Source: Myxococcota bacterium
GTDB lineage: Bacteria > Myxococcota_A > UBA796 > CAJQPC01
Reading direction: 5' to 3'
DNA length: 64,000 nucleotides
NCBI GenBank assembly: GCA_036012755.1
Contig: DASCPX010000179.1
Location: forward strand, 1-64,000
Part shown: in pieces, positions 5,204 through 26,792 of the stretch
How the letters are laid out: each line of letters opens with the position of its first letter
How positions within the stretch are numbered: the stretch's first letter is position 1
The notes under the pieces: generated by a model
Told to the model about the DNA's origin: nothing
Databases searched by the model: none
Seen by the model: the letters and a program-made list of their open reading frames with translations, nothing else
Program-made: the position numbers and the translations under genes

Positions 5204-5342
5204 TCAGAGCTGGTCGAAGAACTGCTCCGGATCGCAGGTCACGTCTGTCGCCACGATGGCCGGAGAGCAGGCGACGATCAACAGCAGCACGGCCTCCAGG
5301 TAACCCGAGCCGTCCGGTGGCATCCTTCGCCGCGGAGGCCAC

Positions 5343-5786: not shown

Positions 5787-6115
5787 GCTGGGAGCTGCGC
5801 ATCGAGGTCGGCGCGACCCACCTCGACCTGGACATCTACGAGCGCCGCGTCGAGATCCTCGCCCGGGGGCCGGGTGAGCTGACGGACGAGATCGGCCAGC
5901 TCCTACGCTTCCGGAGGCCGCTGGTCGGCGAGGTGGACCCGAAGGCTCTGCGAGCACTGCTGATGGGGGCGGAGGCCGGGGCCCTGCTCGCCCGTGTCCA
6001 GGACGGCACGGGCGTCGACATGTTGTGGAGCGGGGACCGCCTGGGCACGTGGACCGAGGACGCCTTCGAGGCTGCCTGCCTGCTGCACGAGGCCGTCGAC
6101 GGGATGACAGAATAG
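5783..6115 (+). CDS. Hypothetical protein, start uncertain
   Basis: Frame of the tracked ORF 5933..6115 stays open and coding-like upstream (LSWELRIEVGATHLDLDIYERR). Confidence 0.4.
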   Translation: MSWELRIEVGATHLDLDIYERRVEILARGPGELTDEIGQLLRFRRPLVGEVDPKALRALLMGAEAGALLARVQDGTGVDMLWSGDRLGTWTEDAFEAACLLHEAVDGMTE

Positions 6116-6119
6116 GGTC

Positions 6120-7766: not shown

Positions 7767-7895
7767 CTCCTCAGAACTGGAAGTTCTGAGTCCCACCTGT
7801 CGATCGAGTGTACATGCGGATCGACAAAGGGCTGTACACGGTCATAGTGGCCTAAAGAGGCCTGGAGAGGCCCGTACCGTGTACAACTTCCTGCG

Positions 7896-8035
7896 GCTCA
7901 GCGGCTCCGCTTGAAGTTCCAGAGTCGGGGTGCTTCACTCTGGGTCCCAGGAGAGCCTTCATGACCCAACGCAGCGTTCTGAATTGGATGGCACTCGGCC
8001 TGTTGGGCCTTGTCGGTTGCCAGCAGGCCCCAGCC
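7896..8035 (+). repeat. ~140-bp repeat, copy 1 (structured leader plus lipoprotein signal)
   Basis: Closely matches 11178-11318; partial third match CTCTGGGTCCCAGGA near 8888. Confidence 0.9.
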
Positions 8036-8140
8036 TACGCAGAACCCACCGGTGCTGCCTCAGGGGCACAACGAAGGGTGCTGCACCCTGTGCTACCAAC
8101 CCAGCTGCCTCTCTCTCACCCCGACCGGACCCACCCTTGA
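7961..8140 (+). CDS. Small lipoprotein or remnant (59 aa)
   Basis: AGGAGA RBS; MTQRSVLNWMALGLLGLVGCQQA; N-terminus paralogous to 11244..11438. Confidence 0.5.
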   Translation: MTQRSVLNWMALGLLGLVGCQQAPAYAEPTGAASGAQRRVLHPVLPTQLPLSHPDRTHP

Positions 8141-8607
8141 ACGACACTGACGACGTCGACATCCGCCCAGAACCTGCAGGTCAACGCGATACCAAGAAGA
8201 AAGAGGAACACCCCGAACGCACGTCGCACCGGACGCGGGGAGGTTTCGAGTAGCCACGTCTGCAGTCGCCAGCTCAGGCGGCCGAAGAAGCCCTGGTAGT
8301 GGGCCGCCAGGCCAGAATGGTCACCATGGCTGCTTCTTGCCATCCAATCCGGATCGATCACATAAAGGACACCGATTGCGGCCAGCGCAGTCGTGAGACC
8401 GCCGAAGAAGATCTCGAGGTCTCCATGGAAGATAGCGAGCCCCACGGTCCCAAGTGGAACGAGGACAAACAGCCCAAACAACACACCGCCTGCGATCCGG
8501 GAGCCCCTCGGGCTGAGGGCCTGGAGGCGGTTCAAAGGGTGCTCGAACGCTTGATCCTCAGGGTGATCGGGGTCTTGCATCCAACGAGTCAAGCACTTTC
8601 GACCCAT
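8116..8607 (-). CDS. Hypothetical membrane protein (island cargo)
   Basis: 163 aa with about three hydrophobic segments; start uncertain. Confidence 0.5.
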   Translation of the reverse strand: MGRKCLTRWMQDPDHPEDQAFEHPLNRLQALSPRGSRIAGGVLFGLFVLVPLGTVGLAIFHGDLEIFFGGLTTALAAIGVLYVIDPDWMARSSHGDHSGLAAHYQGFFGRLSWRLQTWLLETSPRPVRRAFGVFLFLLGIALTCRFWADVDVVSVVQGWVRSG

Positions 8608-8650
8608 GCGGTCAAAGCGACAGCACCTCGAAGGGGAAGACAGTCGGCGA

Positions 8651-8815
8651 ATGCAGCAGCCTCTTCAGGTGGTCCACGCTCCTTGCCCGCAGTGCAACGG
8701 GCCCGCGGTCTTCCGCTGGGTCGGCGGTCGCTGGCTGGGGGCGTGCTGCGCTCCTGGAGCGTGCTGGTGGTCCCGTGCTCTACCCGTGCTGCAGGGGCTC
8801 GATGTCGATGAGTGA
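8651..8815 (+). CDS. Small Cys-rich, Zn-ribbon-like protein
   Basis: MQQPLQVVHAPCPQCNGPAVF...CC..GAC. Confidence 0.3.
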   Translation: MQQPLQVVHAPCPQCNGPAVFRWVGGRWLGACCAPGACWWSRALPVLQGLDVDE

Positions 8816-8936
8816 CCGCTACTGAGTTGGGGCACCCGGGCATCATGCCGGTGCCCTTACTTTTCACGTCGCTGGTCTTCCCCTACGCTCTGGGTCCCAG
8901 GAAAGCCCTCTTCCTGGGCTTCCGTGGAGACTCGCC

Positions 8937-11162
8937 ATGAGGATGCGCTGCTTGTTTGTTTTCCTGGTCGCGACCGGCTGCAAGGACACGGCTTCGGATG
9001 ACACCGGGGGCCCGGTCGACGACGACGGCGACGGGTTCACGGTCGAGGACGGTGACTGTGACGACGCCGACGCGTCCATCCACCCAGGAGCCGAAGACAC
9101 CTGGTACGACGGAGTGGACACCAACTGCGACGAAGCCAGTGACTACGACGCCGACGGCGATGGCCACGACAGCGACGACTACGACGGCGACGACTGTGAC
9201 GACGCGGACGCCACCATCTCCCCCAGTGCAGATGAGATCTGGGACGACGGCATCGACCAGGACTGCGACGGTTTGGCGGATGTCGAAGGCTCTTCCTGCT
9301 CAGCCGACTTCACGGTCACCTTTCCCGATGGCAGCACGACCACGCTCGATGGCTGCGCCGACTGGGACTTCGACGCCTCCTTCGAGTACGACCCGGACGA
9401 CCCACCCGAGGTCATCGACTTCACCTTCACGCTGGGAGCCACAACCGAGGCCGACTTCGACTGTCGGGTGGAGCTGGTCCAGCAGGGCGTGTGCGGCGAG
9501 GGCTACTACGACCAGCGAGACGCCACCACGTCCACCACGCTGGTGCTGCTGGACTGCTCGGGTGTGGCGGACGAATACGAGGGCACCTTCTCGGCGAGCG
9601 AGGGCTACCTGCGAATCGACACGCTCGATGCGGGGTCGGACGCGGGGAGCTTCGCGGGTGAACCCCTGGCGACCACACTCGAAGCCCACCTGCACGTCTG
9701 GACCGCCGGTGGAATCGACCTCGAAGGGGACCTGGCGCTCACGCTGAAGCAGGTGGCCAGCGACGGGGAGGAGCAGCCCGAGTGCGCGGTGACCGATGGG
9801 GATGAGGATGGCGACGGACACGTCGCTGAGACGTACTTCGATGGGGATGACTGTGACGATGAAGATGTGACGGTCCATCCCGGAGCTGTCGACGAGGCCG
9901 CGTCGGACGAGTGCATGCTGGACGGAGATTCGGACGGCTATGGCGATGCCGATCCGCCGGATGGCTTCGATGCCGGTACCGACTGCGACGATGACGATGC
10001 AACCACCTTTCCCGGTGCGGCGGAATCCGAAGATGCATCGGCGTGCATGACGGACGCAGACGCAGACGGCTACGGAGACAACGACCCGGCCGATGGAGTC
10101 GACGCAGGTACCGATTGCGACGACGATGAGGTGACGGTCTATCCAGGAGCCGTCGACGAGGCCGCGTCGGACGAGTGCATGCTGGACGGAGATTCGGACG
10201 GCTATGGCGATGCCGACCCGCCGGATGGCTTCGATGCCGGTACGGACTGCGACGATGACGCCGACCGGGCCTACCCCTACGACTCCAACGGGGATGGGGT
10301 GGAGGACGCCTGTGGTTGGCGAGTGGACGCGGGCGGCCGGCACACCTGCGCTCTGGACTCCGCGGGCTCCATCGTGTGCTGGGGGTGGGACAACCACGAC
10401 CAGGTCTCCGATACGCCGACGGGCAGCGGCTACACCGCAGTGAGCGGGGGCGGCTACCACACCTGTGCCATTGACTCCACGGGCTCCATCGCGTGCTGGG
10501 GGTACGACGACGACGGCCAGGTCTCCGACGCGCCAACCGGCAGCGGCTACACCGCGGTGAGCGCGGGGTCTGGCTCCAGTGATCCAGCAGGGGGAGGGTA
10601 TGGCGTGGGTCGCCACACCTGCGCTCTGGACTCCGCGGGCTCTATCGCGTGCTGGGGGTACGACGACGAAGGCCAAGTCTCCGACGCGCCGACAGGCACC
10701 GGCTACACCGCTGTGAGTGCGGGCTATTACCACACCTGTGCCTTGGACTCCGGGGGCGCCATCGAGTGCTGGGGGCACGACTACCACGACCAGGTCTCCG
10801 ATACGCCGACGGGCAGCGGCTACACCGCAGTGAGCGCGGGCGACCGGCACACCTGCGCTCTGGACTCCGCGGGCTCCATCGAGTGCTGGGGGCAGGACTG
10901 GGTATGGCAGATCTCCGACGCGCCGACGGGCAGCGGCTACACCGCAGTGAGCGCGGGCAACCGGCACACCTGCGCTCTGGACTCCGCGGGCTCCATCGAG
11001 TGCTGGGGGTGGGACGACGGCGGCCAGGTCTCCGACGCGCCAACCGGCAGCGGCTACACCGCCGTGAGCGCGGGCGGCGAACACACCTGTGCCATTGGCT
11101 CCTCGGGCGGCATCAAGTGCTGGGGGAGCGACTCCAAAGGCCAGTGCTCTGACATCCCTTAG
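8937..11162 (+). CDS. Surface lipoprotein with MopE-like metal-binding repeats and RCC1-like propeller
   Basis: LVATGC lipobox; DCDD.D..IHPGA..WYDGVD.NCD repeats; seven HTCALDS.G.I.CWG repeats. Confidence 0.9.
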   Translation: MRMRCLFVFLVATGCKDTASDDTGGPVDDDGDGFTVEDGDCDDADASIHPGAEDTWYDGVDTNCDEASDYDADGDGHDSDDYDGDDCDDADATISPSADEIWDDGIDQDCDGLADVEGSSCSADFTVTFPDGSTTTLDGCADWDFDASFEYDPDDPPEVIDFTFTLGATTEADFDCRVELVQQGVCGEGYYDQRDATTSTTLVLLDCSGVADEYEGTFSASEGYLRIDTLDAGSDAGSFAGEPLATTLEAHLHVWTAGGIDLEGDLALTLKQVASDGEEQPECAVTDGDEDGDGHVAETYFDGDDCDDEDVTVHPGAVDEAASDECMLDGDSDGYGDADPPDGFDAGTDCDDDDATTFPGAAESEDASACMTDADADGYGDNDPADGVDAGTDCDDDEVTVYPGAVDEAASDECMLDGDSDGYGDADPPDGFDAGTDCDDDADRAYPYDSNGDGVEDACGWRVDAGGRHTCALDSAGSIVCWGWDNHDQVSDTPTGSGYTAVSGGGYHTCAIDSTGSIACWGYDDDGQVSDAPTGSGYTAVSAGSGSSDPAGGGYGVGRHTCALDSAGSIACWGYDDEGQVSDAPTGTGYTAVSAGYYHTCALDSGGAIECWGHDYHDQVSDTPTGSGYTAVSAGDRHTCALDSAGSIECWGQDWVWQISDAPTGSGYTAVSAGNRHTCALDSAGSIECWGWDDGGQVSDAPTGSGYTAVSAGGEHTCAIGSSGGIKCWGSDSKGQCSDIP
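10341..11160 (+). repeat. Intragenic 117-bp tandem repeat (about 7 units)
   Basis: CACACCTG(C/T)GC... recurs near 10341, 10458, 10614, 10731, 10848, 10965 and 11082; one unit has a 39-bp insert. Confidence 0.9.
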
Positions 11163-11621: not shown

Positions 11622-13025
11622 TCAGAACTGGAAGTAGAAAAACGGCGCAGCAAGGCCCGCGAAGAGGCTGAGGATCCCCACCGCGCAGACCCCGACAGCT
11701 GCCAGGCCCCAGGGTGGCATCTCGCCGAAGGCCTCGCGGAGCCTGTCCTTGAGGCCGATGGGGGACAGGTGCAGGGCTGCTGCTGCTGCCAGGGCGAGCA
11801 GTCCAGGGACCGCGAGCAGGGAGCCGTCGAACCAGCGGGGATGGAACAGCGCGACGAAGGCGTGGCCGGCCTCCCGGAAGGAGTTGACGTGGAGGAAGAT
11901 CAGGCCGATGCAGAGGGCGTTGAAGGTCACGAAGACCTCGATCCAGCGGCCCCACCAGCTCTTCGCGGGCTTGGGCGCCCACTTCCGCCAGGCGACCAGC
12001 AAGAAGCCGTTCCAGAGGCCCCAGACGGCGAAGGTCCAGCCGGCGCCGTGCCAGAGGCCCCCGAGGAAGAAAGTGAAGACCGTCGCGAACATGGTCCGCG
12101 CCACCCCGTGCTTGGAGCCCCCGAGGGGGAAGTACAGGTAATCCCTCAGGAAGAACGACAGCGTGATGTGCCAGCGCCGCCAGTGCTCCATCGGGGTCCT
12201 GGAGATGAAGGGGCGCCTGAAGTTCTCTGGCAGCGAGAACCCGAACAACAGTGCGGCTCCGATGGCGACGTCGCTGTAGCCGCTGAAGTCGCAGTAGACC
12301 TGGAAGTTCGCGGCCCAGACCGCCAGCAGGGTGTCCAGGGTTCCGAAGGCCGCTGGCTCGTCGAAGTAGGGCCGCACGATGTGGCGGGCCATGGTGTCAG
12401 CCAGGATCATCTTCTTGGCGAGGCCGGCGAGGATGAAGAAGATGCCCTCGCCGAAGGCCCTGTCGTCCAGCCTGGGTCGCGAGGCGAGCTGGGGCAGGAA
12501 CTCCCGGGCGCGGACGATGGGGCCAGCTACCAGCTGTGGGAAGAAGAAGACGAAGACAGCGAAGGACAGGGGGTTCTTCGTCGGCTGGATCTTCCTCCTG
12601 TAGATGTCGACGGTGTAGGACAGCGACTGGAAGGTGTAGAAGCTGATGCCCACCGGCAGCACGGTGCCGATCCGCCCCAGCCTGGTGTCTACGCCACCCG
12701 CCGAGAGCGCCATCTCCGTCGAAGCGAGCAGGAAGTCGCCGTACTTGAAGACGCCGAGCAGGCCGAGGTCGAGGGAGACCGTGAGCGCCAGGAGCTTCTT
12801 GCGGGTGCTCTCCTTGTCGCTGTTGCCGATGAGCCAGCCGAAGACGAAGGAGTTCAGCGTCGAGATCGCGATGAGGAAGAGGTACCAGGGCTGCCAGCTC
12901 GCGTAGAACAGCGCGCTGACGAACAAGAGCCAGATCCACAGCGGCCACTTCCACCGCTCGATGGCGGCGTAGACCGCGTAGACGACGACCAGGAAGACGC
13001 CGAACTCGAAGGTGTTGAACAGCAC
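11622..13025 (-). CDS. MBOAT O-acyltransferase (AlgI/DltB family)
   Basis: LPVGISFYTFQ, FPQLVAGPI, YCDFSGYSD, WRRWHITLS, GLWHGAGW, FFYFQF end. Confidence 0.95.
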   Translation of the reverse strand: MLFNTFEFGVFLVVVYAVYAAIERWKWPLWIWLLFVSALFYASWQPWYLFLIAISTLNSFVFGWLIGNSDKESTRKKLLALTVSLDLGLLGVFKYGDFLLASTEMALSAGGVDTRLGRIGTVLPVGISFYTFQSLSYTVDIYRRKIQPTKNPLSFAVFVFFFPQLVAGPIVRAREFLPQLASRPRLDDRAFGEGIFFILAGLAKKMILADTMARHIVRPYFDEPAAFGTLDTLLAVWAANFQVYCDFSGYSDVAIGAALLFGFSLPENFRRPFISRTPMEHWRRWHITLSFFLRDYLYFPLGGSKHGVARTMFATVFTFFLGGLWHGAGWTFAVWGLWNGFLLVAWRKWAPKPAKSWWGRWIEVFVTFNALCIGLIFLHVNSFREAGHAFVALFHPRWFDGSLLAVPGLLALAAAAALHLSPIGLKDRLREAFGEMPPWGLAAVGVCAVGILSLFAGLAAPFFYFQF

Positions 13026-14071
13026 TAGTGGCTGGCACCCTCCAGGATCGGGGCCACCTGTTCACAGAGCTCGGCGGAGAAGATGGCGGAGCCGCTCGCG
13101 TCGAGGTGATCGGGATCGAGCCAGTGCTCCTTGTCGCTCCTCCAAGTCGAGAGGTTGCCGTCCCAGACCTCGACCCCCGCGCCCTCCATCTCCAGGACGG
13201 CCTGGACGTGGGCCGAGTAGACGTCTCCGGGGATGACGCGGAAGAACTGCGGGTGGAGCGGCATGTTGACGAAGAGCACGGCGACGCCGTTGTCATCCGC
13301 CCACTGGAGCGTCTCCAGCATGCGCCGATGGTTGAGCCCCTCGCCGGTCTCCCAGTCACCGAAGCGCCCGGCGGTGGCCAGGCCCTGGCGCTCGGTGGAC
13401 CACTTTGCCCAGCGGTACGAGGAGAGCTTCGAGAAGGCCTCGTTCTGGTCCGGGCAGGTGGGGTCACCGAAGCAGAACTGACCTCCGCGGTGGTGGGTCA
13501 TCATCCAGCGCAGGCGCTGCTCTTCGTCGAAGCGACCGCTGAGCAAGAGCGCCAGGGTCTCGGGCCCGCGTGCGACGGGCTCCAGCGCGCCGATCACCGT
13601 GCGGACGTTGCGGGCCTCTGCGAGCATCTCCGGCACGTCCGCGACCCGACCTTCGAGGGCGAAGATCCGGAAGTTCTTGTGGTTGTTGTCGTTGAGCGCC
13701 TCTGCTGTGACCCCGATGACGAGCAGCTTCGGGACCCGGTCCGAGACGAGCACGTCCCTGGCCAGGTGCTCCCAGGTGAGCCCGGTCGAGTAGACCCGCG
13801 AGAGGTTCACAGAGCGCGTCTGGCGCCCGAGGGTGTCGCTGAGGCAGGCGTCGAGCGCGGTCGGGCTGACCCCGAAGCTGCCACGGCTGCTCCCGAAGAC
13901 CACGACGTCCAGTGGTCCCTCGACGCCGTGCTGGAAGCTGAAGATGTCGCTCGGCCAGACGATGTTCTGCACGTAGCGCAGGCCCGCTGCTTCGGTCGCT
14001 GCCGAGGTCCCCACGAGCATCACGAGGAACCAGATTAGCGAGGCGACGCCTCTCCACACCGAGGGGCTCAC
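13025..14071 (-). CDS. SGNH/DltD-like partner of the MBOAT
   Basis: N-terminal TM, VFGSSR motif, C-terminal DPDHL (DxxH); coupled to the MBOAT gene. Confidence 0.75.
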   Translation of the reverse strand: MSPSVWRGVASLIWFLVMLVGTSAATEAAGLRYVQNIVWPSDIFSFQHGVEGPLDVVVFGSSRGSFGVSPTALDACLSDTLGRQTRSVNLSRVYSTGLTWEHLARDVLVSDRVPKLLVIGVTAEALNDNNHKNFRIFALEGRVADVPEMLAEARNVRTVIGALEPVARGPETLALLLSGRFDEEQRLRWMMTHHRGGQFCFGDPTCPDQNEAFSKLSSYRWAKWSTERQGLATAGRFGDWETGEGLNHRRMLETLQWADDNGVAVLFVNMPLHPQFFRVIPGDVYSAHVQAVLEMEGAGVEVWDGNLSTWRSDKEHWLDPDHLDASGSAIFSAELCEQVAPILEGASH

Positions 14072-14439
14072 TTGTGCTTGCCCCCTGGCTTCACGCTCTT
14101 CCTGCCGACGCGACGCTGGAGCTTCTTCCGGGTCTCCCTCGCGACGCCCCTGGAGAGTGGGTCCTCGCCACGCTTCGCGGCCTCTGCCATCTCTCGCCAG
14201 ATCTGCTTCTGGAGGTCGCGGTTGGCGTCCTGCTTCTCTCCGACCGCCTGCCCGTTGAGGCCACCTGGGAAGTTCGGCTCTGGCGCCGCGGGGGTTCCGC
14301 TGCCGAGGGCCATCGCCTGGTCCACGTCCACGCGCTCTCCGTGCTGGACTGGGACCAACAAGGCCCCCGCCGCCAGCGAGCCGAAGAGGACCACGACCGC
14401 AAGGACACCGATGCCACGGCCCAGCTGACGGGGGCTCAC
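14068..14439 (-). CDS. Hypothetical membrane-anchored protein
   Basis: GTGA overlaps at both ends; N-terminal TM. Confidence 0.6.
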   Translation of the reverse strand: MSPRQLGRGIGVLAVVVLFGSLAAGALLVPVQHGERVDVDQAMALGSGTPAAPEPNFPGGLNGQAVGEKQDANRDLQKQIWREMAEAAKRGEDPLSRGVARETRKKLQRRVGRKSVKPGGKHK

Positions 14440-14795
14440 GGGAGCCCCTCGGGGAAGGCGCGGCCGGCTGCGACATGGAGCGCCCGGTAGCGCTCGAAGA
14501 GCTCGACGACCGCGGGGTCCTCCAGGCTCGCGGTCTCGGAGGCTGCGGTGATCTGCTCCGGGGTGGGGAGCCCCTCCACGTCGCCGAGCTCGGAGCTCAG
14601 GAAGTGGAAGATCTCCCACAAGGCCGCTTCGCCGGCTGGCGCGGTGTTCCGGGTGGGCCCCCAGCCTCCGCCGAGGCCCTTCTTCGGGCCCCTTCCGTCG
14701 AAGGTCAGCGGGTCGAGCTCGTACAGATCGACGGGGGGCTCCACCGCCGGCCAGTGACTTCCGCTCGAACATGCCAACGACAAGAGGAAGATCAC
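14436..14795 (-). CDS. Hypothetical lipoprotein
   Basis: MIFLLSLAC; GTGA overlap with the upstream gene. Confidence 0.65.
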   Translation of the reverse strand: MIFLLSLACSSGSHWPAVEPPVDLYELDPLTFDGRGPKKGLGGGWGPTRNTAPAGEAALWEIFHFLSSELGDVEGLPTPEQITAASETASLEDPAVVELFERYRALHVAAGRAFPEGLP

Positions 14796-16126
14796 GGCGT
14801 CCAATAACCCCGCTGCCCGAGGAGCTCGCGGCGCTCCTCGCTGACCTCGCCGGAGGCCCTCGGATCCAGCTTCTCGCGCCAGCTGATGAGCTCGTCGCGG
14901 AGGCTCAGGTCGCCTTCCCAGGCAGGTCCGTGGGGATCAGAGGCCTTCATGATCGGGACCAGGAAGGGGTTGTGGGGGGATAGGCCGGAGAACGACAGCC
15001 GCGCTGCGCCGCGGGTCGCGAGGAGCTCGCGGAAGGCGGACTCGGAGAAGACCGTGCGCTCCTTGGGCGGCGCCAGCAGATCACTGCCCGACAGCCCCGC
15101 CGGCGGCGCAAGACCAGTCGCCGCGAACAGCGTCGGGGCGATGTCGACGAGGGAGACCGTCTCGCTGACGCGGCCGGTTCGGCCACCGGGGACGCTGATG
15201 AGTAGCGGCACCCGCACGACGTCCTCGCAGAGGGGGGGGCGGTGGTTGAAGAGGCCGTGCTCCCCAAGGTCCTCGCCGTGGTCGCCGAGCACGACGATGA
15301 TGGTGTCGTCGAGCTTTCCCCGGCTCTCGAGGCCGGCCATCAGCTCTCCGAACCAGGCGTCGCCGTACTGCACGGCCGAGTCGTAGACACCGGCGACGGC
15401 GGCGGCGGCTGTGGGACCGAAGGGCACCCCGCCTTCCCGCTCTCTGGCGCGCGCGGCTGCATCCCATGCGCGCAGGTGGTCCTTGGCGAAGAGGTCACCA
15501 AAGCGCTTGTCCGGGAAGTACTGACCCTCGACCACCCGCGCCGTGCCGGAGTGCCTGCGGGCGACCTCGCCGGCGACGCCCTCTGGGAGGTCGCTGTGCG
15601 GCTTGAGGTAGCGATGGTGGGCGTCGTAGCCATGGACTACCAGGAAGAAGTCGCCGTCGACGTCATCCAGCCAGGCCAGCGCCGGGGGGACGGTGTGGAA
15701 GAAGCTGCCCCAGTCGCGCACGGACTCGTAGGTCCCGAAGCCGTCCTGGAGGCCGAAGACCGGGTCGAGGTGGCCGCCGGCCACGAAAGCCCCGGTCTCG
15801 TAGCCGTAGAGCCCGAAGACCTCGGCCAGGGTCTTCTCCTCGGGGGGGAGCGTGAAGCTGTAGTCGACCGCCCCGATCTCCGAGACGTAGCGCCCGGTGA
15901 ACAGCGCCGCGTGCGAGAAGAGGGTCTCGTTGCTCGGTGCGACCGCGTTGTCGAAGACCAGCGCCGAGCGGGCGAAGGCGTCGAGGTTGGGGGTCAGGCT
16001 GTCGACGTTGCCGTAGGCGCCGAGTCGATCACGCCGCAGGGTGTCGAAGCTCACCACCAGCACGCTCGGGTGCCCAGGCTCTTGCGACTGCGCGGCGCAG
16101 CCCAGCGTCAACGAGAACATCAGCAC
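14792..16126 (-). CDS. Sulfatase-like (alkaline phosphatase superfamily) lipoprotein
   Basis: VSFDTLRRDRLGAYG..TPNLD, SNETLFSHAALFTG, YDAH, GDHGE, VPL. Confidence 0.88.
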   Translation of the reverse strand: MLMFSLTLGCAAQSQEPGHPSVLVVSFDTLRRDRLGAYGNVDSLTPNLDAFARSALVFDNAVAPSNETLFSHAALFTGRYVSEIGAVDYSFTLPPEEKTLAEVFGLYGYETGAFVAGGHLDPVFGLQDGFGTYESVRDWGSFFHTVPPALAWLDDVDGDFFLVVHGYDAHHRYLKPHSDLPEGVAGEVARRHSGTARVVEGQYFPDKRFGDLFAKDHLRAWDAAARAREREGGVPFGPTAAAAVAGVYDSAVQYGDAWFGELMAGLESRGKLDDTIIVVLGDHGEDLGEHGLFNHRPPLCEDVVRVPLLISVPGGRTGRVSETVSLVDIAPTLFAATGLAPPAGLSGSDLLAPPKERTVFSESAFRELLATRGAARLSFSGLSPHNPFLVPIMKASDPHGPAWEGDLSLRDELISWREKLDPRASGEVSEERRELLGQRGYWTP

Positions 16127-16144: not shown

Positions 16145-17941
16145 GTGCTCTTCTCTCTGCTCATCGCTTGCACCGACGAGGCCCCCAGACAGGTCCTGCT
16201 GCCACCCGTAGCGGCCATCTGGGCGGCGGAGCATCGCCACTTCGACAGAGACGGCGACGGCGTCCTGGGCCCGCGGGAGTTCACCCAAGGAGTCCGAAAG
16301 CACACCTCCGGGCTGTCCTTCGCTGCGGGGGACCTCGATCTCGACGGAAGGCTCAGCCTCTCCGAGTTCCGGACGCTGATGGAGACCCGCGAGCCCCGAG
16401 TCCTGGTCGACAAGCGCCTCGATCCGGGGGACCCGAAGCGGCGCCAGACGGAGCAGTTCCAGTTCGTGCCGCGCGAGGGACGGATCCCCGGAGACGAGGG
16501 GCCGGTCGCCACGGAGCGGAAGGGCTTGCCCAACCTCCTGCTCATCTCCATGGACTCGGTGCGGGCGGACCGGACCTCGCCCTACGGCTTTGTGAAGGAC
16601 ACGACCCCCTGGCTCGCTCGCCTGGCCGAGCACGGCGTGGTCTTCGAGACGGTCGGCTCGACCGGAAACGAGTCCGCGTACTCCCACGCCGCGATGCTGA
16701 CCGGGCGCTACCCGAGCGAGATCGCCAGCCCCGACTACCTCACCTACCAGATCCCCGAGGAGGCGACGCTGGTGGGGGAGATCCTCCAGCTCTACGGCTA
16801 CGAGACCGCAGCCTTCCTGGCGGGCGGCCACATCCGCGGCGAGTTCGGTTTCGACCAGGGGTGGCAGACCTTCAGCCACGAGTTGGGCTTCGCGAGCTTC
16901 TGGCACACCACGCCAAAGGCGCTCGAGTGGCTCGACGAGCGCGAGCGGGGCGCGCCCTGGATGCTCATGGTCCACGGCTACGACGCCCACCGCAGCTACA
17001 TCCTGCCCGACCCCTACTACCACCGCTTCACAGCCGGCGGTGGAAGCCCGCTGGCCGAGCACATCGTCCGACGCGGCTACCGCGCCGAGCGCATCTACGG
17101 CGACACCTTCTACGAGGACTTCGAGCTCGAGAGCCTCCAGCACCCCAGCGGGATGTTCATCCTCACGCCCGGGTCCTACGCCCGCCTGGTAGACGAGGCT
17201 GGCGCGCGGGCTGACGGCCAGACGCTCACAGCCGCCGACATCGAGCACCTCCGCGGCCACTACCACGCGATGTTGCGCTACCTCGACCTGCAGCTGGCCC
17301 TCTTCCTCAGCGCCGCAGAGGCCAGCGGCCACTTGGACAACACGCTCATCGTGCTGACCTCTGACCACGGCGAGGACATGCTCGATCACGGCTGGATGAA
17401 CCACCGGACGGGGCTGACCGAGAGCTGCACGCGGGTGCCGCTCGTGGTGCTCGGCCCCGGGGTCGCCGAGGGCGCACGCTCGGAGGAGCTGGTGAGCCTG
17501 CTGGACCTCGTCCCCACGCTGTTGGAGGCAGGCGGCGCGGTGCCCCCCGCGGAGCTTCGAGGTCGCTCGATCTGGCCCGCGCTGCGCGGGGAGGACATGC
17601 CCGATCAGCCGATCTTCTACGAAGGGGTGAACGACCAGGTCGCGGTGCGGACCGCCACCCACAAGCTGGTCTACTCAGGCCTCCCGCTGTCGGATCCTGG
17701 CCACCTCGCTGGTCTGCAGAGCGACGGCCCCGAGCACTTCGCGCTCTACGACCTGCGCAGTGATCCCGGCGAGACCGCAGCGGTAGACGACCCCGCGGTC
17801 TTCGACGCTCTCCGCATGGAGCTCATCGTCTGGAGGGTGGGGCTCGCGACGGCGACGCACGGAATGGACCCCGCCAGCCTGGATCCCGCCATCAGGAGGG
17901 AGATGCAGGACAAGGGCTACTGGGAGTTCGGCGAGGACTGA
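16145..17941 (+). CDS. Sulfatase-like lipoprotein with N-terminal EF-hand pair
   Basis: LIAC; DRDGDGVLGPREF and DLDGRLSLSEF; PNLLLISMDSVRAD, GNESAYSH, SDHGE. Confidence 0.88.
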   Translation: MLFSLLIACTDEAPRQVLLPPVAAIWAAEHRHFDRDGDGVLGPREFTQGVRKHTSGLSFAAGDLDLDGRLSLSEFRTLMETREPRVLVDKRLDPGDPKRRQTEQFQFVPREGRIPGDEGPVATERKGLPNLLLISMDSVRADRTSPYGFVKDTTPWLARLAEHGVVFETVGSTGNESAYSHAAMLTGRYPSEIASPDYLTYQIPEEATLVGEILQLYGYETAAFLAGGHIRGEFGFDQGWQTFSHELGFASFWHTTPKALEWLDERERGAPWMLMVHGYDAHRSYILPDPYYHRFTAGGGSPLAEHIVRRGYRAERIYGDTFYEDFELESLQHPSGMFILTPGSYARLVDEAGARADGQTLTAADIEHLRGHYHAMLRYLDLQLALFLSAAEASGHLDNTLIVLTSDHGEDMLDHGWMNHRTGLTESCTRVPLVVLGPGVAEGARSEELVSLLDLVPTLLEAGGAVPPAELRGRSIWPALRGEDMPDQPIFYEGVNDQVAVRTATHKLVYSGLPLSDPGHLAGLQSDGPEHFALYDLRSDPGETAAVDDPAVFDALRMELIVWRVGLATATHGMDPASLDPAIRREMQDKGYWEFGED

Positions 17942-19851
17942 GTCTTCGAAGGCTTGAAGGCGCTGTAGACGACCCAGCGCCACTGGTCTCGAATTCGTCC
18001 AGAGGGCGTGATCTCGAAGGGATGGGCCCTCCGCACTTCGGCCGGCGCTTCGTGGTAGAGGCGACGGATCTCGTGACGCTGCAGCGACGGCGTCTCGTGG
18101 GTCTCGATCCAGGTGTCGATGTCCTCCCACACGGTGAGCTCGCTGGTCTCGATGTCTACGAAGCCGGCGTCCTCGAGCAGGCGAACGAGGTCTTCTGCCA
18201 GGAAGTTGTTGAAGAACAGGGGCTGCTTCTTCTTCACGATGCGGAAGAACCAGGGCGCGTCGACCGGGCCGTATGGCACCAGCTGGCCAAAGATGAACTG
18301 GCCACCGGGCCGCAGGACGCGGAAGACCTGGGCGACCGGACGCTCCGGGCGCGGGAGGAGGTGGAGGACCTCGCGGTTGCAGACGAGGTCGAAGCTGTCG
18401 TCCGGGAAGGGCATCTCGTAGACGTCGCCCTTCGTGACGTGGTCGAGCCGGGTCTCGGCGAGCGCGATCATCTCGGGCGTGAGGTCCAGGCCCTCGATGT
18501 GACCCACCTGTTCGCGGAAGCTGGCGCCGACGACCCCTGAGCCGCAGCAGATGTCGAGCACGCGGGCGTCCTCTGGCATCTTGCACATCGCGGCGTGGGC
18601 GGACAGCAGGTTCTCGTCTGTGAGCCACACGCAGCTGTCGTGCCAGTTCTTCGAGCGAATGCCGAACTGCTTCCGGTAGATCTCCTTGGAGAGCTTGGTG
18701 TCCACGGCCTGGTAGCGGGCGCGTTCGCTGGCCCTTCGCGCGGCGGCCCGAGCCCTGGAGGCCTCCAGCGCCTTGCCGACGATGGCGGCGGCTACGTCCG
18801 GGTGGGCCTCCATCCAGGCGTCGAGCTCCTTCTCGACCACCCTCTGTACCGCCGCGTGGGCGCCCCCGGATGACAGCATCGTCTTGGTCTGCCCCTCGAA
18901 CTGGGGCTCGGGGAGCGTCACCACCAGGACCGCGACCATGCCCTCGCGGATGTCGTGTCCGGCGATCTCCTCGTCGAGGTCGTCGCTGAGCAGACCCACC
19001 TTGCGCACGTAGCGGTCCACCGACCTCGTCAGCGCCGCCCGGAGCCCGGTGACGTGGGTCCCGCCGTGGCGTGTGTGGATGGTGTTGACGTAGCTGCGGA
19101 GTTCCTCGTGGTAGGTGCGCGTCCACATCAGCGCGACCTCGACCTCGACCTCGTCCCGAGCACCGGAGAGCCGAATCGGTTCCCGGTGCAGGGCGCGAGG
19201 GCCGGCGATGCGCTGGACGAAGCCGGCGACACCGCCCTCCTCCTCGTAGACCTGCTCCGTGCCATCCGGCAGGCTCAGCTCCAGGCGCAGGCCGGGGAGC
19301 AGGAAGGACCACTCTTCGAGGCGCCGGGCGATGGCGGCGAGGTCGACCGCGCCCTCCTCGAAGATCTGGGGGTCGGGGCGCCAGCGGACCACCGTCCCGT
19401 GGTGCTCGGTCGCGCCAAGGTCCTCGCAAGGAGAAGGGAGGCCACGCTGGTAGCGCTGCCGCACGTGCCGGCCCCGGTGGACCTCGACCTCCAGGACCTC
19501 TGAGAGGGCGTTCACGCAGGAGATTCCGACACCGTGGAGGCCGCCGCTGACCGTGTAGCCGCCAGCCTTGTCGAACTTCCCGCCCGAGTGCAGGGTCGTG
19601 AGGACGAGCTCGATCGACTCCAGCGGGATGCCGCGGCCATCGTCGATGACCGTGGTGGTCCCGTCGTGGTCCACCTCGACCCGGATGCGGGTGCAGAATC
19701 CGGCGAGGGCCTCGTCGATGCTGTTCTGGACGACCTCGAGCAGCAGGTGGAGCGCTCCGTCGGGCCCGGTGGAGCCGATGTACATGGCCGGGCGGTGGCG
19801 GACCGCCTCGAGTCCCCCGAGGACACGAATGGAGGTGGCGTCGTACCTCAA
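17917..19851 (-). CDS. GyrB-type GHKL ATPase/transducer fused to a class I SAM-dependent methyltransferase (644 aa)
   Basis: YDATSIRVL.GLEAVR.RP.MYIG, EVVQNSIDE, DDGRGIP, SGGLHGVG, EPQFEGQTK, then VLDICCGSG...FPDDSFD; no Toprim; TTG start overlaps the upstream stop. Confidence 0.88.
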   Translation of the reverse strand: MRYDATSIRVLGGLEAVRHRPAMYIGSTGPDGALHLLLEVVQNSIDEALAGFCTRIRVEVDHDGTTTVIDDGRGIPLESIELVLTTLHSGGKFDKAGGYTVSGGLHGVGISCVNALSEVLEVEVHRGRHVRQRYQRGLPSPCEDLGATEHHGTVVRWRPDPQIFEEGAVDLAAIARRLEEWSFLLPGLRLELSLPDGTEQVYEEEGGVAGFVQRIAGPRALHREPIRLSGARDEVEVEVALMWTRTYHEELRSYVNTIHTRHGGTHVTGLRAALTRSVDRYVRKVGLLSDDLDEEIAGHDIREGMVAVLVVTLPEPQFEGQTKTMLSSGGAHAAVQRVVEKELDAWMEAHPDVAAAIVGKALEASRARAAARRASERARYQAVDTKLSKEIYRKQFGIRSKNWHDSCVWLTDENLLSAHAAMCKMPEDARVLDICCGSGVVGASFREQVGHIEGLDLTPEMIALAETRLDHVTKGDVYEMPFPDDSFDLVCNREVLHLLPRPERPVAQVFRVLRPGGQFIFGQLVPYGPVDAPWFFRIVKKKQPLFFNNFLAEDLVRLLEDAGFVDIETSELTVWEDIDTWIETHETPSLQRHEIRRLYHEAPAEVRRAHPFEITPSGRIRDQWRWVVYSAFKPSKTQSSPNSQ

Positions 19852-20306
19852 TCCCTCAACTCCTTCGCGACAGCCTCGCAGCGGTCCGCGTGGGCTGCCT
19901 TGGCGACTGCGACCGACTCGAACCACGAGGCGATGTCGGGGAAGCCCTCCGCGTGGGCGGTGCGGGCGGCGTCCAGCAGGTCCTCTGTGGCCTCGACCCG
20001 GGCGGCGTCGCGCAGGGCGGCGAGGTTGTCGGCGGTCCCTCGCAGGACCCGGCCGGTCACAGGGTGGCCGGTCTTCTTCAGGAAGTCGAGGTGGCCCTCG
20101 GCGAAGAGCTCGGTGCCCTCCGAGAGCTCGTGCAGCGTGCCCGCGATCTCGTGGAAGCCCTCGATCTCGGCGATGCGAGCGAAGTAGGCATAGAGCACCG
20201 CCGCGCGCGCGTCGTTCGAGAAGAAGCGCCCCAGGCACTCGTGGGTGCGAGTTCCTCTGAGATCCGGGAGGCGACCCTTGGCGGCCTCCCGCGTGCGGTC
20301 GTCCAT
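19848..20306 (-). CDS. Degenerate rubrerythrin (ferritin-like) protein
   Basis: L.G.RT...L...F, YAYFA..A..EG, GHL.FL...G.P.TG, EGF..IA.WFE.....AHA pattern. Confidence 0.8.
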   Translation of the reverse strand: MDDRTREAAKGRLPDLRGTRTHECLGRFFSNDARAAVLYAYFARIAEIEGFHEIAGTLHELSEGTELFAEGHLDFLKKTGHPVTGRVLRGTADNLAALRDAARVEATEDLLDAARTAHAEGFPDIASWFESVAVAKAAHADRCEAVAKELRD

Positions 20307-20313
20307 CGTGGTT

Positions 20314-22014
20314 CTACTTCGCTGCTGTCGTCAGCTGCTTGGCGCCGCAGTCCATGAGGGCGGAGCCGATCGCGGCCTGCTCGGGGGTCCCGCAGTTCTC
20401 GAGCGTGAAGCGCTCCGAGCCCGGCGCGAGGTAGGGGGCGCCGGAGGAGAACTCGGCCCGCCAGCCCTCGCCGGCATAGTCGACGGAGTTCTGCAGACCA
20501 TCATCCGGGTTCCCGGCGTGGTACTCGAAGTGCTCTGGCCAGTGCTCGAAGTCCATCACCGGACCGGGGCAGTAGGCGTCGTAGACCCGCTTGTAGGCGC
20601 GACGGCTCACCTCCTCGGGGAGGCCGTTGTAGTTGAGGAACTCGTCCTCGAGCAGCGCCTGCTCGATGCTGAGCCAGTTGAGATGGTCCACCTCGGACTT
20701 GATGATCCCGTCGCGGAGGCCGTTGTTGTAGATCGACGTCCCAGGCATCGCCGAGAGGTACTTCACGCGGGTGATGTGGTTGTTCTCCTCGGCCCAGGTG
20801 GCGACGTGGTCGAGGCTCTCCTCCGTCTCCCCCGGCAGGCCGACGATGATCAGCGCGCCGTAGCGCAGATCCGCCTCGTAGGTCTTCCTCAAGGAGCGGA
20901 CGGTGATGTTCTCGCTGTTGCCCTTCCGGGCCTCCTTGAGGATGTTCTGGCCCAGGGACTCGACGCCGTAGAGCACGATGTCGCAGCCCGACTTCTTCAT
21001 CGCGGTGAGGCGCTCTGTGTCGACGTCTGAGCAGCGGGTCAGGCAGGTCCAGCGCAGGTCGTGGTCCTGGATGACCTCGCAGATCTCGACGGTCTGGCGC
21101 TTCTGGCTCGTGAAGGTCAGGTCGACGAAGAAGACGAACTCCGTGCCGTACTGCTCCTTCATCCAGCGCAGGTCGCGGTCGAGCTTCTCTGGAGACTTCG
21201 CCCGGACCTGCGGTGTCGTCCGGTAGCAGAAGCTGCAGTCCATCCTGCAGCCGCGGGAGTAGCTAGCGATGACCTGTGGCTGCAGCCCGCGGGGGTCGTT
21301 GGCTTGCGGCCAGAGATCCAGGCGCATCCGGGGAAGGCTGTCGAGGTCCATCATCTGGCCACGCGGGACCGTGCGCAGCATCTGGCCCTCGGGCCCGCGG
21401 AAGGCGATGCCGCGGATCGACGCGAGCTCCCGCGACCAGGCGCCGCGGCGGAAGCTGTCCATGACCTCGAGGATCGTGAGCTCGCCCTCGGACAGCACGG
21501 CCACGTCGACACCGCACCGGGCGAAGAAGGTCTCCGGAACGCTGGTGACCAGCGATCCGCCGAGCACGACCGGGACCTTCGGCAGCTCCGTCTTGCAGAG
21601 GTCCACGAAGGCGCAGACCCAGGGGAAGTTGTCCTCGAAGGTCGCCACACCGACCACGTCGACGCGTTCTCGCTTCAGCGCCTCCCAGGCCTCCCTCATC
21701 GGATCGACGGCGTAGCGGACGTCGATGATGCGGACCGGGTAGCCGGCGTTGTGGAGGACGGTGGAGATGTAGGCGATGCCCTCGTACGGAGAGGTCAGGA
21801 AGAACTCCCACCCCCGAGGCATCGAGAAGGGCGATGGTCCGACGACGAGGGCGATGGCGGGCTTGCCCGTGTCCGTAGAGATGGGGCTCTCGTCCTGGTC
21901 GCGCATCATGCGCATGAGGTGGGCGTCGACCGAGGACACGGCGTCCGTGTACAGCTCCGGGGCCAGGGATGGCTTTCGCGCCACGCGCACCTCCGCAGGC
22001 AGGTGGGAGCCCAC
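20314..22014 (-). CDS. B12-binding-domain radical SAM protein (start uncertain)
   Basis: PYEGIAYISTVL, VVLGG, EGE, SRGCRMDCSFC (CxxxCxxC), FVDLTF, GVES, IVGLPGET. Confidence 0.92.
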   Translation of the reverse strand: MGSHLPAEVRVARKPSLAPELYTDAVSSVDAHLMRMMRDQDESPISTDTGKPAIALVVGPSPFSMPRGWEFFLTSPYEGIAYISTVLHNAGYPVRIIDVRYAVDPMREAWEALKRERVDVVGVATFEDNFPWVCAFVDLCKTELPKVPVVLGGSLVTSVPETFFARCGVDVAVLSEGELTILEVMDSFRRGAWSRELASIRGIAFRGPEGQMLRTVPRGQMMDLDSLPRMRLDLWPQANDPRGLQPQVIASYSRGCRMDCSFCYRTTPQVRAKSPEKLDRDLRWMKEQYGTEFVFFVDLTFTSQKRQTVEICEVIQDHDLRWTCLTRCSDVDTERLTAMKKSGCDIVLYGVESLGQNILKEARKGNSENITVRSLRKTYEADLRYGALIIVGLPGETEESLDHVATWAEENNHITRVKYLSAMPGTSIYNNGLRDGIIKSEVDHLNWLSIEQALLEDEFLNYNGLPEEVSRRAYKRVYDAYCPGPVMDFEHWPEHFEYHAGNPDDGLQNSVDYAGEGWRAEFSSGAPYLAPGSERFTLENCGTPEQAAIGSALMDCGAKQLTTAAK

Positions 22015-22090
22015 ATCCTAACGCGTCGAGGTCGTGGGACGGCGTCAACAGGCTCTCGGAGACGTTAGGCGCCGTCCCTGGAGGATCCCC

Positions 22091-22831
22091 ATGAAGTCCG
22101 ATGGTGCCGATGTCCGCGCCCACTTCACTGCCCGCGCTGCGCACTACGACCGGAGCTCGAACTGGTGCACCGACGACACCCTCGCCGAGGCTACCTGGCG
22201 GTATGCGGCGGCGAAGGCGGACCATCGAGTCCTCGATGTCGCCTGCGGGACCGGCCTGGTGTCGCGAGTGTTCAAGGGACGAGTGAGCGAGATCGTCGGC
22301 GTGGACATCACGCCGGCCATGTACGAGCAGGCGGAACCTCACCTCGATCGCTTCGTCGAAGGCGCTGGCGAGGACCTCCCCTTCGCCGCTGACAGCTTCG
22401 ATCGCGTCGTCTGCCGGCAGGGCACGCAGTTCATGGACGACGCCGCGGCGGTGAGAGAGATGGCCCGCGTGGTGAAGCCAGGCGGTCGTGTCGTGGTCAT
22501 CAACCTCTGCGCCTACGGCGAGCGGGACCGTGACGAGTACTTCGAGGTCCTGCGGTTGCGGAACCCAGCGCGGCGGAACTTCTACATGCGCGAGGATCTC
22601 GTCCACCTCTTCGAGGATGCCGGACTGTCGGTGGATGTCCACGACTTCGTCATCGAAGAGGACGTCGACGCCTGGGCGGACAACAAGGCCATCGGAGCAG
22701 ACCGCCGCGACGGCATCCGCGAGATCTACCGGAACGCCTCGCCGGCCTTCGCCGCGCACCATGCCGTCGAGTTCGACGGCGGGCGGATTCTGGACAGAAT
22801 GTTGTTTGGAATCGCCGTGGGCGACAAGTAG
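22091..22831 (+). CDS. Class I SAM-dependent methyltransferase (UbiE/Methyltransf_11-like)
   Basis: GGAGG RBS; VLDVACGTG, LPFAADSFD, EMARVVKPGG. Confidence 0.92.
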   Translation: MKSDGADVRAHFTARAAHYDRSSNWCTDDTLAEATWRYAAAKADHRVLDVACGTGLVSRVFKGRVSEIVGVDITPAMYEQAEPHLDRFVEGAGEDLPFAADSFDRVVCRQGTQFMDDAAAVREMARVVKPGGRVVVINLCAYGERDRDEYFEVLRLRNPARRNFYMREDLVHLFEDAGLSVDVHDFVIEEDVDAWADNKAIGADRRDGIREIYRNASPAFAAHHAVEFDGGRILDRMLFGIAVGDK

Positions 22832-22864
22832 CGGCTAACCTTCATCCGCGTCCCGGAGGCTCTC

Positions 22865-23872
22865 TTGATCGCGCTCTTCCTCGCCTGCCAGACCCCCACG
22901 ACACAGCCAGAGGTCGAGATCGCGCCCGTCGAGCCAGCGGCCAAGGGCACGACGATGCTCGCCATCAACTTCCCGGTGCAGGAGCAGCGCCTCGTCGAGC
23001 TCGACGCGGAGGGCGAGGTCGTCTGGCAGTTCGTGGTCGGCGACGAGCTGACCTTCAATGGCGACGGGGAGTTGCCGGGGCTGTTGTCCTCGATGGAGGT
23101 CCTGCCGTCCGGCAACGTGCTCTTCACGGTGTTCCTGGTCGGCGTCTTCGAGATCGATCGTGAGGGCGAGATCGTCTGGGAGCACCGGGATCCGGGCGCC
23201 AGCCACGACGTGGACCGACTGGCCAATGGCAACACGCTCTACGCGCGCACCTGGGCAGAAAAAGGCGAGCCCCAGGTCGTCGAGATCGACCCGGAGGGCG
23301 AGGTCGTCTGGAGCTGGGACGGCCTCTCGGCATACGGCGACCACATGGTCTTTGGTGACGTCACCGACGAGGCGGGCGGCTGGATGCACGTCAACGACGT
23401 CGCCCGCGCCGAGGACGGGACGACCATGGTCGTCATCCGCAACTTCAACAAGATCGTCCACCTCGACGACGCCGGCGCCGTGGTCGATGTCTTCACCTTC
23501 CGCAGCCAGGCCGGCGTCTTCGACATCAGCACGCGCGGCCCTGTCGACGGCGAGCGCCCGCACGGCGTCGAGTGGCTCGGTGCCCATCACTTCGTCGCCG
23601 CGACGAGGCGCCCGCATCGCATCGTCGAGGTCAATGGTCGTGACATCGTCTGGAGCTACACGGACGCGCGCCTGGCCGGCATCCGCGACGTCGACCGCCT
23701 GCCCGACGGCAACACGCTGCTGGTGGCGGCCGAAGAGGTCGTCGAGCTCGACGACAGCGGCGCGGTGGTGTGGGAGTGGACCCTCCTGACGGAGGGGTTG
23801 CCAGAGGACATCAACCCGATCCCGGCGATCAGCCGCATCGCAGCTGACGGCACGGTGCTGGACAGGGACTAG
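22865..23872 (+). CDS. Arylsulfotransferase-like beta-propeller lipoprotein
   Basis: MIALFLAC; repeated EID.EGEVVW, HDVDRLANGNTL, WMHVNDV. Confidence 0.7.
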   Translation: MIALFLACQTPTTQPEVEIAPVEPAAKGTTMLAINFPVQEQRLVELDAEGEVVWQFVVGDELTFNGDGELPGLLSSMEVLPSGNVLFTVFLVGVFEIDREGEIVWEHRDPGASHDVDRLANGNTLYARTWAEKGEPQVVEIDPEGEVVWSWDGLSAYGDHMVFGDVTDEAGGWMHVNDVARAEDGTTMVVIRNFNKIVHLDDAGAVVDVFTFRSQAGVFDISTRGPVDGERPHGVEWLGAHHFVAATRRPHRIVEVNGRDIVWSYTDARLAGIRDVDRLPDGNTLLVAAEEVVELDDSGAVVWEWTLLTEGLPEDINPIPAISRIAADGTVLDRD

Positions 23873-26718: not shown

Positions 26719-26792
26719 CGGGGAGTAGCTCAGTCTGGTAGAGCGGGAGCTTTGGGAGCTTCAGGCCGCAGGTTCGAATCCTGTTTCCCCGA
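26719..26792 (+). tRNA. tRNA-Pro (TGG), CCA not encoded
   Basis: CGGGGAG/TTCCCCG acceptor stem, AGCTCAGTCTGGTAGAGC D-arm, GGAGC-TTTGGGA-GCTTC anticodon arm, GGTTCGAATCC T-arm. Confidence 0.96.

Follow-up and report, generated by a model that had tools for sequence, protein, structure and literature searches.

A 64,000-nucleotide stretch of a marine Myxococcota metagenome-assembled genome (MAG; contig DASCPX010000179.1, hereafter the window) encodes a fusion of a GyrB-type ATPase with a methyltransferase (P), next to a rubrerythrin-like protein (Q), a B12 radical S-adenosylmethionine (SAM) enzyme (J) and a second methyltransferase (L). We put the probability at roughly 75% that these four match NucP, NucQ, NucJ and NucL of the nine-gene sub-cluster for sulfamylation found in the Streptomyces pathways to nucleocidin (nuc) and ascamycin (acm) and that, with partner genes elsewhere in the genome, they build a sulfamate (R-O-SO2-NH2), as predicted from sequence comparison. 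The initial annotation had proposed a novel locus, but the available parts of two studies already describe the J-Q-P-L set genetically (PMC10946740, PMC4257720). The locus adds no new kind of system. The four genes are as follows.

17917..19851, minus strand: NucP/AcmP-type GyrB-methyltransferase fusion, 644 aa, TTG start
19848..20306, minus strand: NucQ/AcmQ-type rubrerythrin-like gene, 152 aa, ATG start
20314..22014, minus strand: NucJ/AcmJ-type B12 radical SAM gene, 566 aa
22034..22831, plus strand: NucL/AcmL-type second methyltransferase, divergent from the minus-strand trio; probable start M20 at 22091, 246 aa

As the G+C content of the window is about 68%, lists of open reading frames (ORFs) were full of shadow frames, and real genes were picked by third-position GC (GC3 frame analysis), translations and sequence reading. 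The ATG of the rubrerythrin-like gene lies 7 bp past the stop of the radical SAM gene, and the TTG start of the fusion overlaps the TGA stop of the rubrerythrin-like gene by 4 bp (TTGA). GC3, translation and Pfam upheld the gap, the overlap, the coordinates and all five domain calls of the initial annotation, the fifth being a propeller lipoprotein discussed below. The second methyltransferase probably starts at 22091 because alignments of its orthologs begin at residues 18–28.

Knockouts in Streptomyces calvus and S. virens showed sulfamylation, but not fluorination, to depend on every one of nucG, I, J, K, L, N, O, P and Q (Wojnowska et al. 2023, PMC10946740). Genes for 3′-phosphoadenosine 5′-phosphosulfate (PAPS) were needed too, and nothing else measured was affected, as far as the available part of that study reports. 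In the same text NucP is described as a gyrase carrying a methyltransferase at the C-terminus, NucQ as a ‘pseudo-rubrerythrin’ with missing iron ligands and no rubredoxin domain, NucL as a SAM-dependent methyltransferase, NucK as a strong Sulfotransfer_3 match, NucN as an amidinotransferase and NucO as a weak Sulfotransfer_3 match (region 226–310, E 2.6e-8) with a CurM-like fold. NucI, of about 300 aa, is annotated in the sub-cluster as ‘sulfatase’ or ‘acylsulfatase’. The gene order is given as G, N, I, orf6, J, K, L, Q, P, O, with overlaps at Q/P, P/O and J/K (PMC10946740). In the available part of Zhao et al. 2014 (PMC4257720), AcmP is annotated ‘DNA topoisomerase II’ and Frankia sp. CcI3 is reported to have a homologous gene row.

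Partner families of the locus were defined by synteny before they were compared with the nuc and acm papers. Their sizes stand close to those given by Zhao et al. (PMC4257720): a ‘sulfatase’ of ~489 aa (AcmG, 480), the radical SAM enzyme of 566 aa (AcmJ, 557), a Sulfotransfer_3 protein of 347 aa matching at E 9e-34 (AcmK, 356), a methyltransferase of ~246–265 aa (AcmL, 250), an ADI/DDAH-like enzyme of 319 aa (AcmN, 319), a weak Sulfotransfer_3 protein of 470 aa matching over the stretch 192–309 at E 1.2e-7 (AcmO, 444), the fusion of 644 aa (AcmP, 658) and the rubrerythrin-like protein of 152 aa (AcmQ, 155). By these features P, Q, J and L are found in the window and K, O, N and G on a second contig of the assembly, C72. 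Like the window fusion, NucP of S. calvus and of S. virens and AcmP of Streptomyces sp. JCM9888 join a GyrB-like N-terminus to a C-terminal SAM methyltransferase in ~650 aa, are preceded and overlapped by a pseudo-rubrerythrin gene, and stand among the same partner genes; the Q/P overlap is common to S. calvus and the window. Furthermore, when the published S. calvus verification primers lying inside genes were translated, five peptides matched the window proteins at 6–8 of 8–9 residues:

CKMDCSFCY: window radical SAM enzyme, residues 256–264
LHEDEFLNVS: window radical SAM enzyme, residues 454–461
RWCVYSLRK: fusion C-terminus, residues 625–633 (RWVVYSAFK)
VNLCAYDE: second methyltransferase, residues 156–163
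DVDVWSDN: second methyltransferase, residues 210–217

A tblastn search across the assembly located the remaining genes of the cassette. One region holds its second half (locus L092):

Contig C72, ~31.4–48.4 kb: O-like gene, ‘sulfatase’, EamA-SPFH fusion, two SPFH genes, G-like, N-like and K-like genes, two ‘sulfatases’ and a paralog of the window's arylsulfotransferase (ASST)-like gene

This set lies within 20 kb and includes three more ‘sulfatase’ paralogs beside the one with Thr at the catalytic position; its O-, G-, N- and K-like genes are intact. The G-like ‘sulfatase’ (C72:38929-40380) is 61% identical to its family representative, the family having Thr for the formylglycine Cys. The nearest solved relatives of the K-like protein are the CurM and olefin-synthase sulfotransferases, and those of the N-like protein are DDAH and arginine dihydrolases. 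PF02274 was formerly named after amidinotransferases, which would explain the amidinotransferase label of N. Two genes for adenosine 5′-phosphosulfate (APS) kinase are also present in the genome. A Cys-rich protein of ~240–330 aa with no Pfam match is a candidate for NucI by elimination, as the sole recurrent family left over. In a genome of the same genus (G002) the partner genes are found in one place, around J-Q-P, and the cassette has therefore been split in the lineage studied here.

Co-occurrence was surveyed from two seeds. The first, the radical SAM enzyme, was searched in 40 relatives of the same order, with up to 20 kb fetched around each ortholog. Orthologs (58–77% identity) were found in 17 of the 40, with the fusion and rubrerythrin genes on nine of the 17 stretches and the second methyltransferase on seven. 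Clustering of the neighbours recovered six further recurrent families: clear and weak Sulfotransfer_3 proteins, the ADI/DDAH-like enzyme, a membrane-anchored Thr-‘sulfatase’, the Cys-rich Pfam-less protein and an EamA-SPFH fusion. J, P, O and N were found in the identical 17 relatives and none of them in the remaining 23, although these genomes are kin and not independent. The second, independent seed was the methyltransferase domain of the fusion, searched in one genome per species. It returned 58 loci, some at the same places as the 17 above, mostly from Myxococcota MAGs and also from Pyrinomonadaceae, Candidatus Angelobacter and Acidobacteriaceae MAGs, Azospirillum sp. B506 and Sorangium sp. 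So ce1128. Of them, 55 contained a near full-length fusion gene, accompanied by Q in 53, J in 39, L in 25, O in 23, N in 23, the G-like gene in 20 and K in 18; these counts are lower bounds because many loci are short. Among the 54 loci with sufficient flanking sequence, 53 have the rubrerythrin gene immediately upstream of the fusion.

Azospirillum sp. B506 (locus L084) and one Pyrinomonadaceae MAG carry a same-strand seven-gene operon, L-K-J-O-Q-P-N, and Sorangium sp. So ce1128 has at least J-Q-P-L. In L084 the operon (1141-9550) follows the 23S-5S end of an rRNA operon (1-608) at a distance of ~530 bp. Of 154 genomes of the order, 59 have a single copy of the fusion (26 of 61 among high-quality genomes); of 401 genomes sampled across the phylum, 29 have it, comprising 25 from this order and four from two other families of the same class. 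The J-Q-P-L core is thus a tightly co-inherited unit far outside Streptomyces. The view of the locus as a functionally linked biosynthetic or modification module is borne out by this co-inheritance and by the position of Q beside P; failure of the homologs to co-occur elsewhere had been named as the observation that would count against it, and they co-occur strongly. Metagenomes containing DNA of the locus were of marine, seawater and vent origin.

The fusion itself carries Pfam matches to DNA_gyraseB (8.5e-50), HATPase_c (1.5e-13) and Methyltransf_11 (9.6e-21). Residues 1–383 form the GyrB N-terminal GHKL ATPase and transducer, followed by a conserved linker and a class I SAM methyltransferase at ~425–640. 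A search of the Protein Data Bank (PDB) matched residues 1–376 to the 43K fragment of Thermus thermophilus GyrB (E 8e-94), and the GyrB part shares 46% identity with the genome's own GyrB over residues 3–383; the genome has two separate full-length GyrB/ParE-type genes in all. As in the 43-kDa fragment of DNA gyrase subunit B, the GHKL fold, N-terminal arm, ATP lid and QTK loop are kept. Gyrase subunit B continues with Toprim and a C-terminal domain, whereas the fusion has a methyltransferase there instead. Indeed, Pfam, NCBIfam and the GyrB comparison gave no match to Toprim or to DNA_gyraseB_C (the GyrA-binding tail), GyrB similarity stopping at residue 383, and the fusion therefore cannot form a gyrase.

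Conservation across the family is high in both parts. In an alignment of 61 fusion-family sequences, E39 and N43 (general base and Mg ligand), the adenine-binding D70, the glycine-rich ATP lid and the transducer residues Q321 and K323 are invariant, as are numerous positions in the C-terminal extension and the SAM-binding motif LDVCCGSG, and Y3 and I8 of the N-terminal arm are conserved in at least 90%. Judged from these sequences, such conservation is characteristic of a functional ATP-driven dimerising module fused to a functional methyltransferase, not of a decoy. Since the gyrase-derived ATPase residues are strictly conserved, ATP turnover is probably part of the chemistry. The nearest solved relatives of the methyltransferase domain are small-molecule-type enzymes of unknown function (BH2331, YcgJ), and a role as a DNA methyltransferase clamp was dropped on account of this resemblance to small-molecule methyltransferases.

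These features bear on the analogy drawn in the initial annotation with gyrase-inhibitor clusters (CloN6 with gyrB-R, and cystobactamid), under which the module would make, modify or resist a gyrase inhibitor and the truncated GyrB would act as a decoy or in self-protection. The GyrB-derived domain does resemble the host's own GyrB and keeps the ATP pocket targeted by aminocoumarins, and B12 radical SAM methylases reportedly occur in aminocoumarin clusters, so that a B12 radical SAM gene and a GyrB-related gene would share one cluster there as they do in the window. However, aminocoumarin gyrB-R is a complete resistant gyrase subunit, whereas the window GyrB part is truncated and fused and, lacking Toprim and tail, provides no functional resistant gyrase. 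A passive decoy would need neither invariant catalytic ATPase residues nor a conserved N-terminal arm. Aminocoumarin scaffold genes are absent from the window locus, and scaffold-building enzymes were found in none of the loci; as initially noted, no non-ribosomal peptide synthetase, polyketide synthase or precursor-like family was detected among the 41 window ORFs scanned. The known products are nucleoside sulfamates, and the Streptomyces homologs serve sulfamylation of adenosine analogues which hit protein synthesis, not gyrase. We therefore regard a gyrase-inhibitor module as extremely unlikely, and the analogy finds no support.

Homologs of the fusion appear under other names in sequence collections. 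Its ESM Atlas cluster has 74 members, Actinomycetota being the commonest among the 34 with a known phylum, and no Streptomyces-named member was found in its protein-representative clusters. Three full-length representatives at 50% identity, from Candidatus Wallbacteria and Bdellovibrionales MAGs, are named ‘methyltransferase domain-containing protein’. One cluster, P0005, holds a 900-aa chain with a GyrB ATPase and two methyltransferases, either a natural fusion of P and L or a read-through gene call. Tblastn of PLSDB plasmids gave no match to the methyltransferase domain of the fusion.

Q is a rubrerythrin-like protein (Pfam Rubrerythrin, 6.7e-06) that has no rubredoxin domain, its closest match being sulerythrin (E 2e-23). 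Like NucQ, AcmQ and sulerythrin (PDB 1J30, 7O8D) it comprises a four-helix-bundle rubrerythrin domain of ~150 aa. Sulerythrin is a genuine di-metal protein, whereas at its seven metal-ligand positions the window protein has D, T, F, a gap, E, K and H. The di-iron ligands E53, H56, E92 and E126 are thus replaced, four of the seven sulerythrin ligands being lost, and the two ExxH motifs which supply the seven ligands of rubrerythrin and sulerythrin di-iron proteins are not preserved. In none of 35 relatives is this set of four residues retained, and 33 of them have R or K for E126; E20 (as D/E), E95 (as D/E) and H129 are mostly retained in the family. The protein had been called ‘dead’ at the outset, and the comparison with sulerythrin agrees. 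Iron ligands are likewise missing in NucQ, although the available part of PMC10946740 reports two of six ligands missing, compared with four of seven sulerythrin ligands replaced family-wide here. The evidence for a putative partnership of P and Q is their gene adjacency. The possibility that the rubrerythrin-like protein is the long-leader precursor of a ribosomally synthesised and post-translationally modified peptide (RiPP) was dropped, the C-terminus being short and having no GG-type core.

J has Pfam matches to Radical_SAM (1.3e-23) and B12-binding (6.8e-17) and carries the motif CRMDCSFC at residues 256–263. It shares the N-terminal B12-binding domain and CxxxCxxC core of the class B cobalamin-dependent radical SAM enzymes (HpnJ, BchE, TokK, CloN6) and of NucJ and AcmJ. 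It does not reach the cut-off of any named NCBIfam model (the highest score is 143.8 bits, to HpnJ, whose cut-off is 577.6) and matches solved relatives at E 6e-11 or weaker. A hopanoid or branched glycerol dialkyl glycerol tetraether (brGDGT)-type lipid methylation pathway was dropped, as the HpnJ match was far under the cut-off. L (Pfam Methyltransf_11, 1.6e-21) and the fusion's methyltransferase domain are paralogs sharing 33% identity. Arsenic or quinone methylation was also dropped, the methyltransferase matches being generic only.

Could the window locus be a decaying remnant, in which the cassette has been broken up and no longer works in this lineage? The locus lacks several genes that G002 has, namely K-, N- and I-like ones between J and L and an O-like one after P. 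Furthermore, the fusion lacks eight residues after GRGIP (around residues 77–80; window 19560–19620) which most family members, the family consensus and canonical GyrB possess. However, the four window genes and the four on C72 are open and full length. Catalytic motifs are intact, and GC3 in the window (0.83–0.93) is like that of neighbouring genes. Identity to the G002 orthologs is 72–81%, and the window copies show no frame breaks. A non-working remnant is accordingly very unlikely.

The genes flanking the core are as follows.

22865..23872, plus strand: ASST-like beta-propeller lipoprotein, 33 bp after the second methyltransferase, lipobox LFLAC
16145..17941, plus strand: ‘sulfatase’ lipoprotein of the alkaline phosphatase (AP) superfamily with an EF-hand pair, convergent with the fusion gene
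14792..16120, minus strand: second ‘sulfatase’-domain lipoprotein, MFSLTLGC lipobox, divergent from the gene at 16145..17941
11622-13061, minus strand: MBOAT acyltransferase gene, beyond both ‘sulfatase’ genes
13025-14596, minus strand: 523-aa ORF with no Pfam match, beyond both ‘sulfatase’ genes

The ASST-like lipoprotein has a partial Pfam match to Arylsulfotrans (5.8e-15, 55.6 bits, profile positions 25–209 of 374), and no solved relative of it was found. It had been counted as a member of the locus, but is absent from all 17 radical SAM-seeded and all 58 methyltransferase-seeded related loci; it is a lineage-specific neighbour and not a conserved cassette member. A paralog (42% identity) sits by the other half of the cassette on C72. 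The ‘sulfatase’ at 16145..17941 is a paralog of the NucG-like enzyme and has Ser (ESAYSH) in place of the S1 Cys/Ser-x-Pro-x-Arg formylglycine motif; its closest paralogs (42–43%) are in the C72 half. For both window ‘sulfatases’ the closest relatives are C72 paralogs (40–43%) and cassette-adjacent copies in several other genomes. Ser or Thr replaces the formylglycine Cys in all three ‘sulfatases’ inspected (the two window copies and the G-like family representative). Because the genome holds at least 25 AP-superfamily ‘sulfatase’ paralogs matching the window copy at E <1e-15, those in the window are possible lineage-specific accessories only. MBOAT homologs (32–34% identity) come after the second methyltransferase in loci L045, L053 and L057, and the genome has three closer MBOAT paralogs elsewhere.

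Such neighbours raise an alternative in which the same gene set decorates an envelope component or macromolecule (a lipid, polysaccharide or protein, for example the rubrerythrin-like protein) with sulfate and methyl groups, and no soluble sulfamate is made. The linked EamA-SPFH fusion, SPFH proteins and transmembrane-anchored AP-superfamily enzyme would fit this, as would the MBOAT genes adjoining the set in the window and those three other loci, a GDSL-like gene in four loci, and the lipoprotein ‘sulfatases’ and ASST-like lipoproteins which flank both halves in this genome. The set also looks vertically inherited within one order, and the GyrB clamp normally encloses a polyanionic polymer, as is established for type IIA topoisomerases. 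On the other hand, the most compact operons (L084, L070) carry no membrane parts, the methyltransferase domains resemble small-molecule methyltransferases, and the abundance of ‘sulfatase’ paralogs makes adjacency to them weak evidence. Moreover, the only experimental data, in the available part of PMC10946740, tie all nine genes to nucleoside sulfamate formation. Envelope decoration is, on balance, unlikely.

Several points weigh against sulfamate biosynthesis as the function of the window set. The orthology to Nuc and Acm proteins is founded on architecture, size, gene order and five peptides of 8–10 residues, with the eight-residue deletion after GRGIP as a difference between the fusion and NucP/AcmP. 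The set is spread over at least two contigs here, unlike nuc/acm, and the counterpart of NucI is uncertain, with the genome's own Cys-rich copy on a third contig (C59) and just 50% identical to that of G002. No nucleoside-tailoring gene was seen near the locus, and the halogenase, glucosyltransferase, PNP and APRT genes of nuc/acm are not nearby. That ~40% of one order's genomes carry the set is also compatible with a non-antibiotic physiological role, and no carrier organism has a known product. The Streptomyces knockouts, as described in the available part of the study, show requirement and not mechanism, and an earlier study cited there put nucK, nucN and nucO in fluorination (PMC10946740).

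A sulfamate is predicted for this genome nonetheless because the complete set is present and intact, and a route can be sketched from the enzyme families. K, a PAPS-dependent sulfotransferase, would sulfate a hydroxyl. O, a second, CurM-like sulfotransferase, methylation or ATP use, singly or together, might then activate the sulfate ester as a leaving group, the basis for this step being that the related CurM and olefin-synthase sulfotransferases use sulfation for activation. N (DDAH/ADI-like) may supply nitrogen from a guanidino donor for the amination. P would be an ATP-gated dimer pairing two methyltransferase domains, in the way the GyrB N-gate pairs Toprim; Q would be its obligate partner, and J would carry out a radical step. 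As the finished sulfamate lacks a methyl group, the two methyl transfers would be cryptic. A 5′-O-sulfamoyl nucleoside would be the simplest product, perhaps exported by the linked EamA-SPFH membrane proteins; 5′-O-sulfamyladenosine is the simplest guess because S. calvus itself makes it, according to the available part of PMC8694766.

Taken further, it is possible, though we put this forward tentatively and with some doubt, that an order of marine and freshwater Myxococcota, together with Acidobacteriota, Azospirillum and Sorangium, inherits the cassette and makes a toxin or signal of the nucleoside-sulfamate type. The P clamp and iron-less Q would then form an S-N bond-forming machine, in which ATP-gated dimerisation and cryptic methyl transfer activate a sulfate ester for amination by arginine nitrogen. 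If true, sulfamates would be no mere rarity of actinomycetes among natural products; only eight natural sulfonamides and sulfamates appear in a 2021 review, each from an actinomycete, and it describes the known products of the cassette as nucleoside sulfamates inhibiting protein synthesis (PMC9113183). Formation of the sulfamate S-N bond in nature is an unsolved problem, and how or when the amine enters is not shown by the 2023 knockout results, as stated in the available part of that study (PMC10946740). Cultured strains with the cassette (Azospirillum sp. B506, Sorangium sp. So ce1128) are convenient for reconstitution. A literature search, which did not extend to subscription journals, found no paper tying ascamycin to myxobacteria or giving the enzymology of the cassette.

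No riboswitches were detected by Rfam at gathering thresholds in the window or in loci L084, L070, L083 and L092, the matches being rRNA and one tRNA; the tRNA gene, at 26719-26792 on the plus strand, is the sole match in the window. Elsewhere in the window, an ORF at 41479-42720 (plus strand) matches just the C-terminal part of the TLC ATP/ADP-transporter profile (E 1.3e-23), in what is a free-living-type genome, and a histidine kinase (HisKA and HATPase_c) at 55876-57558 (minus strand) is fused to two PhoU domains.

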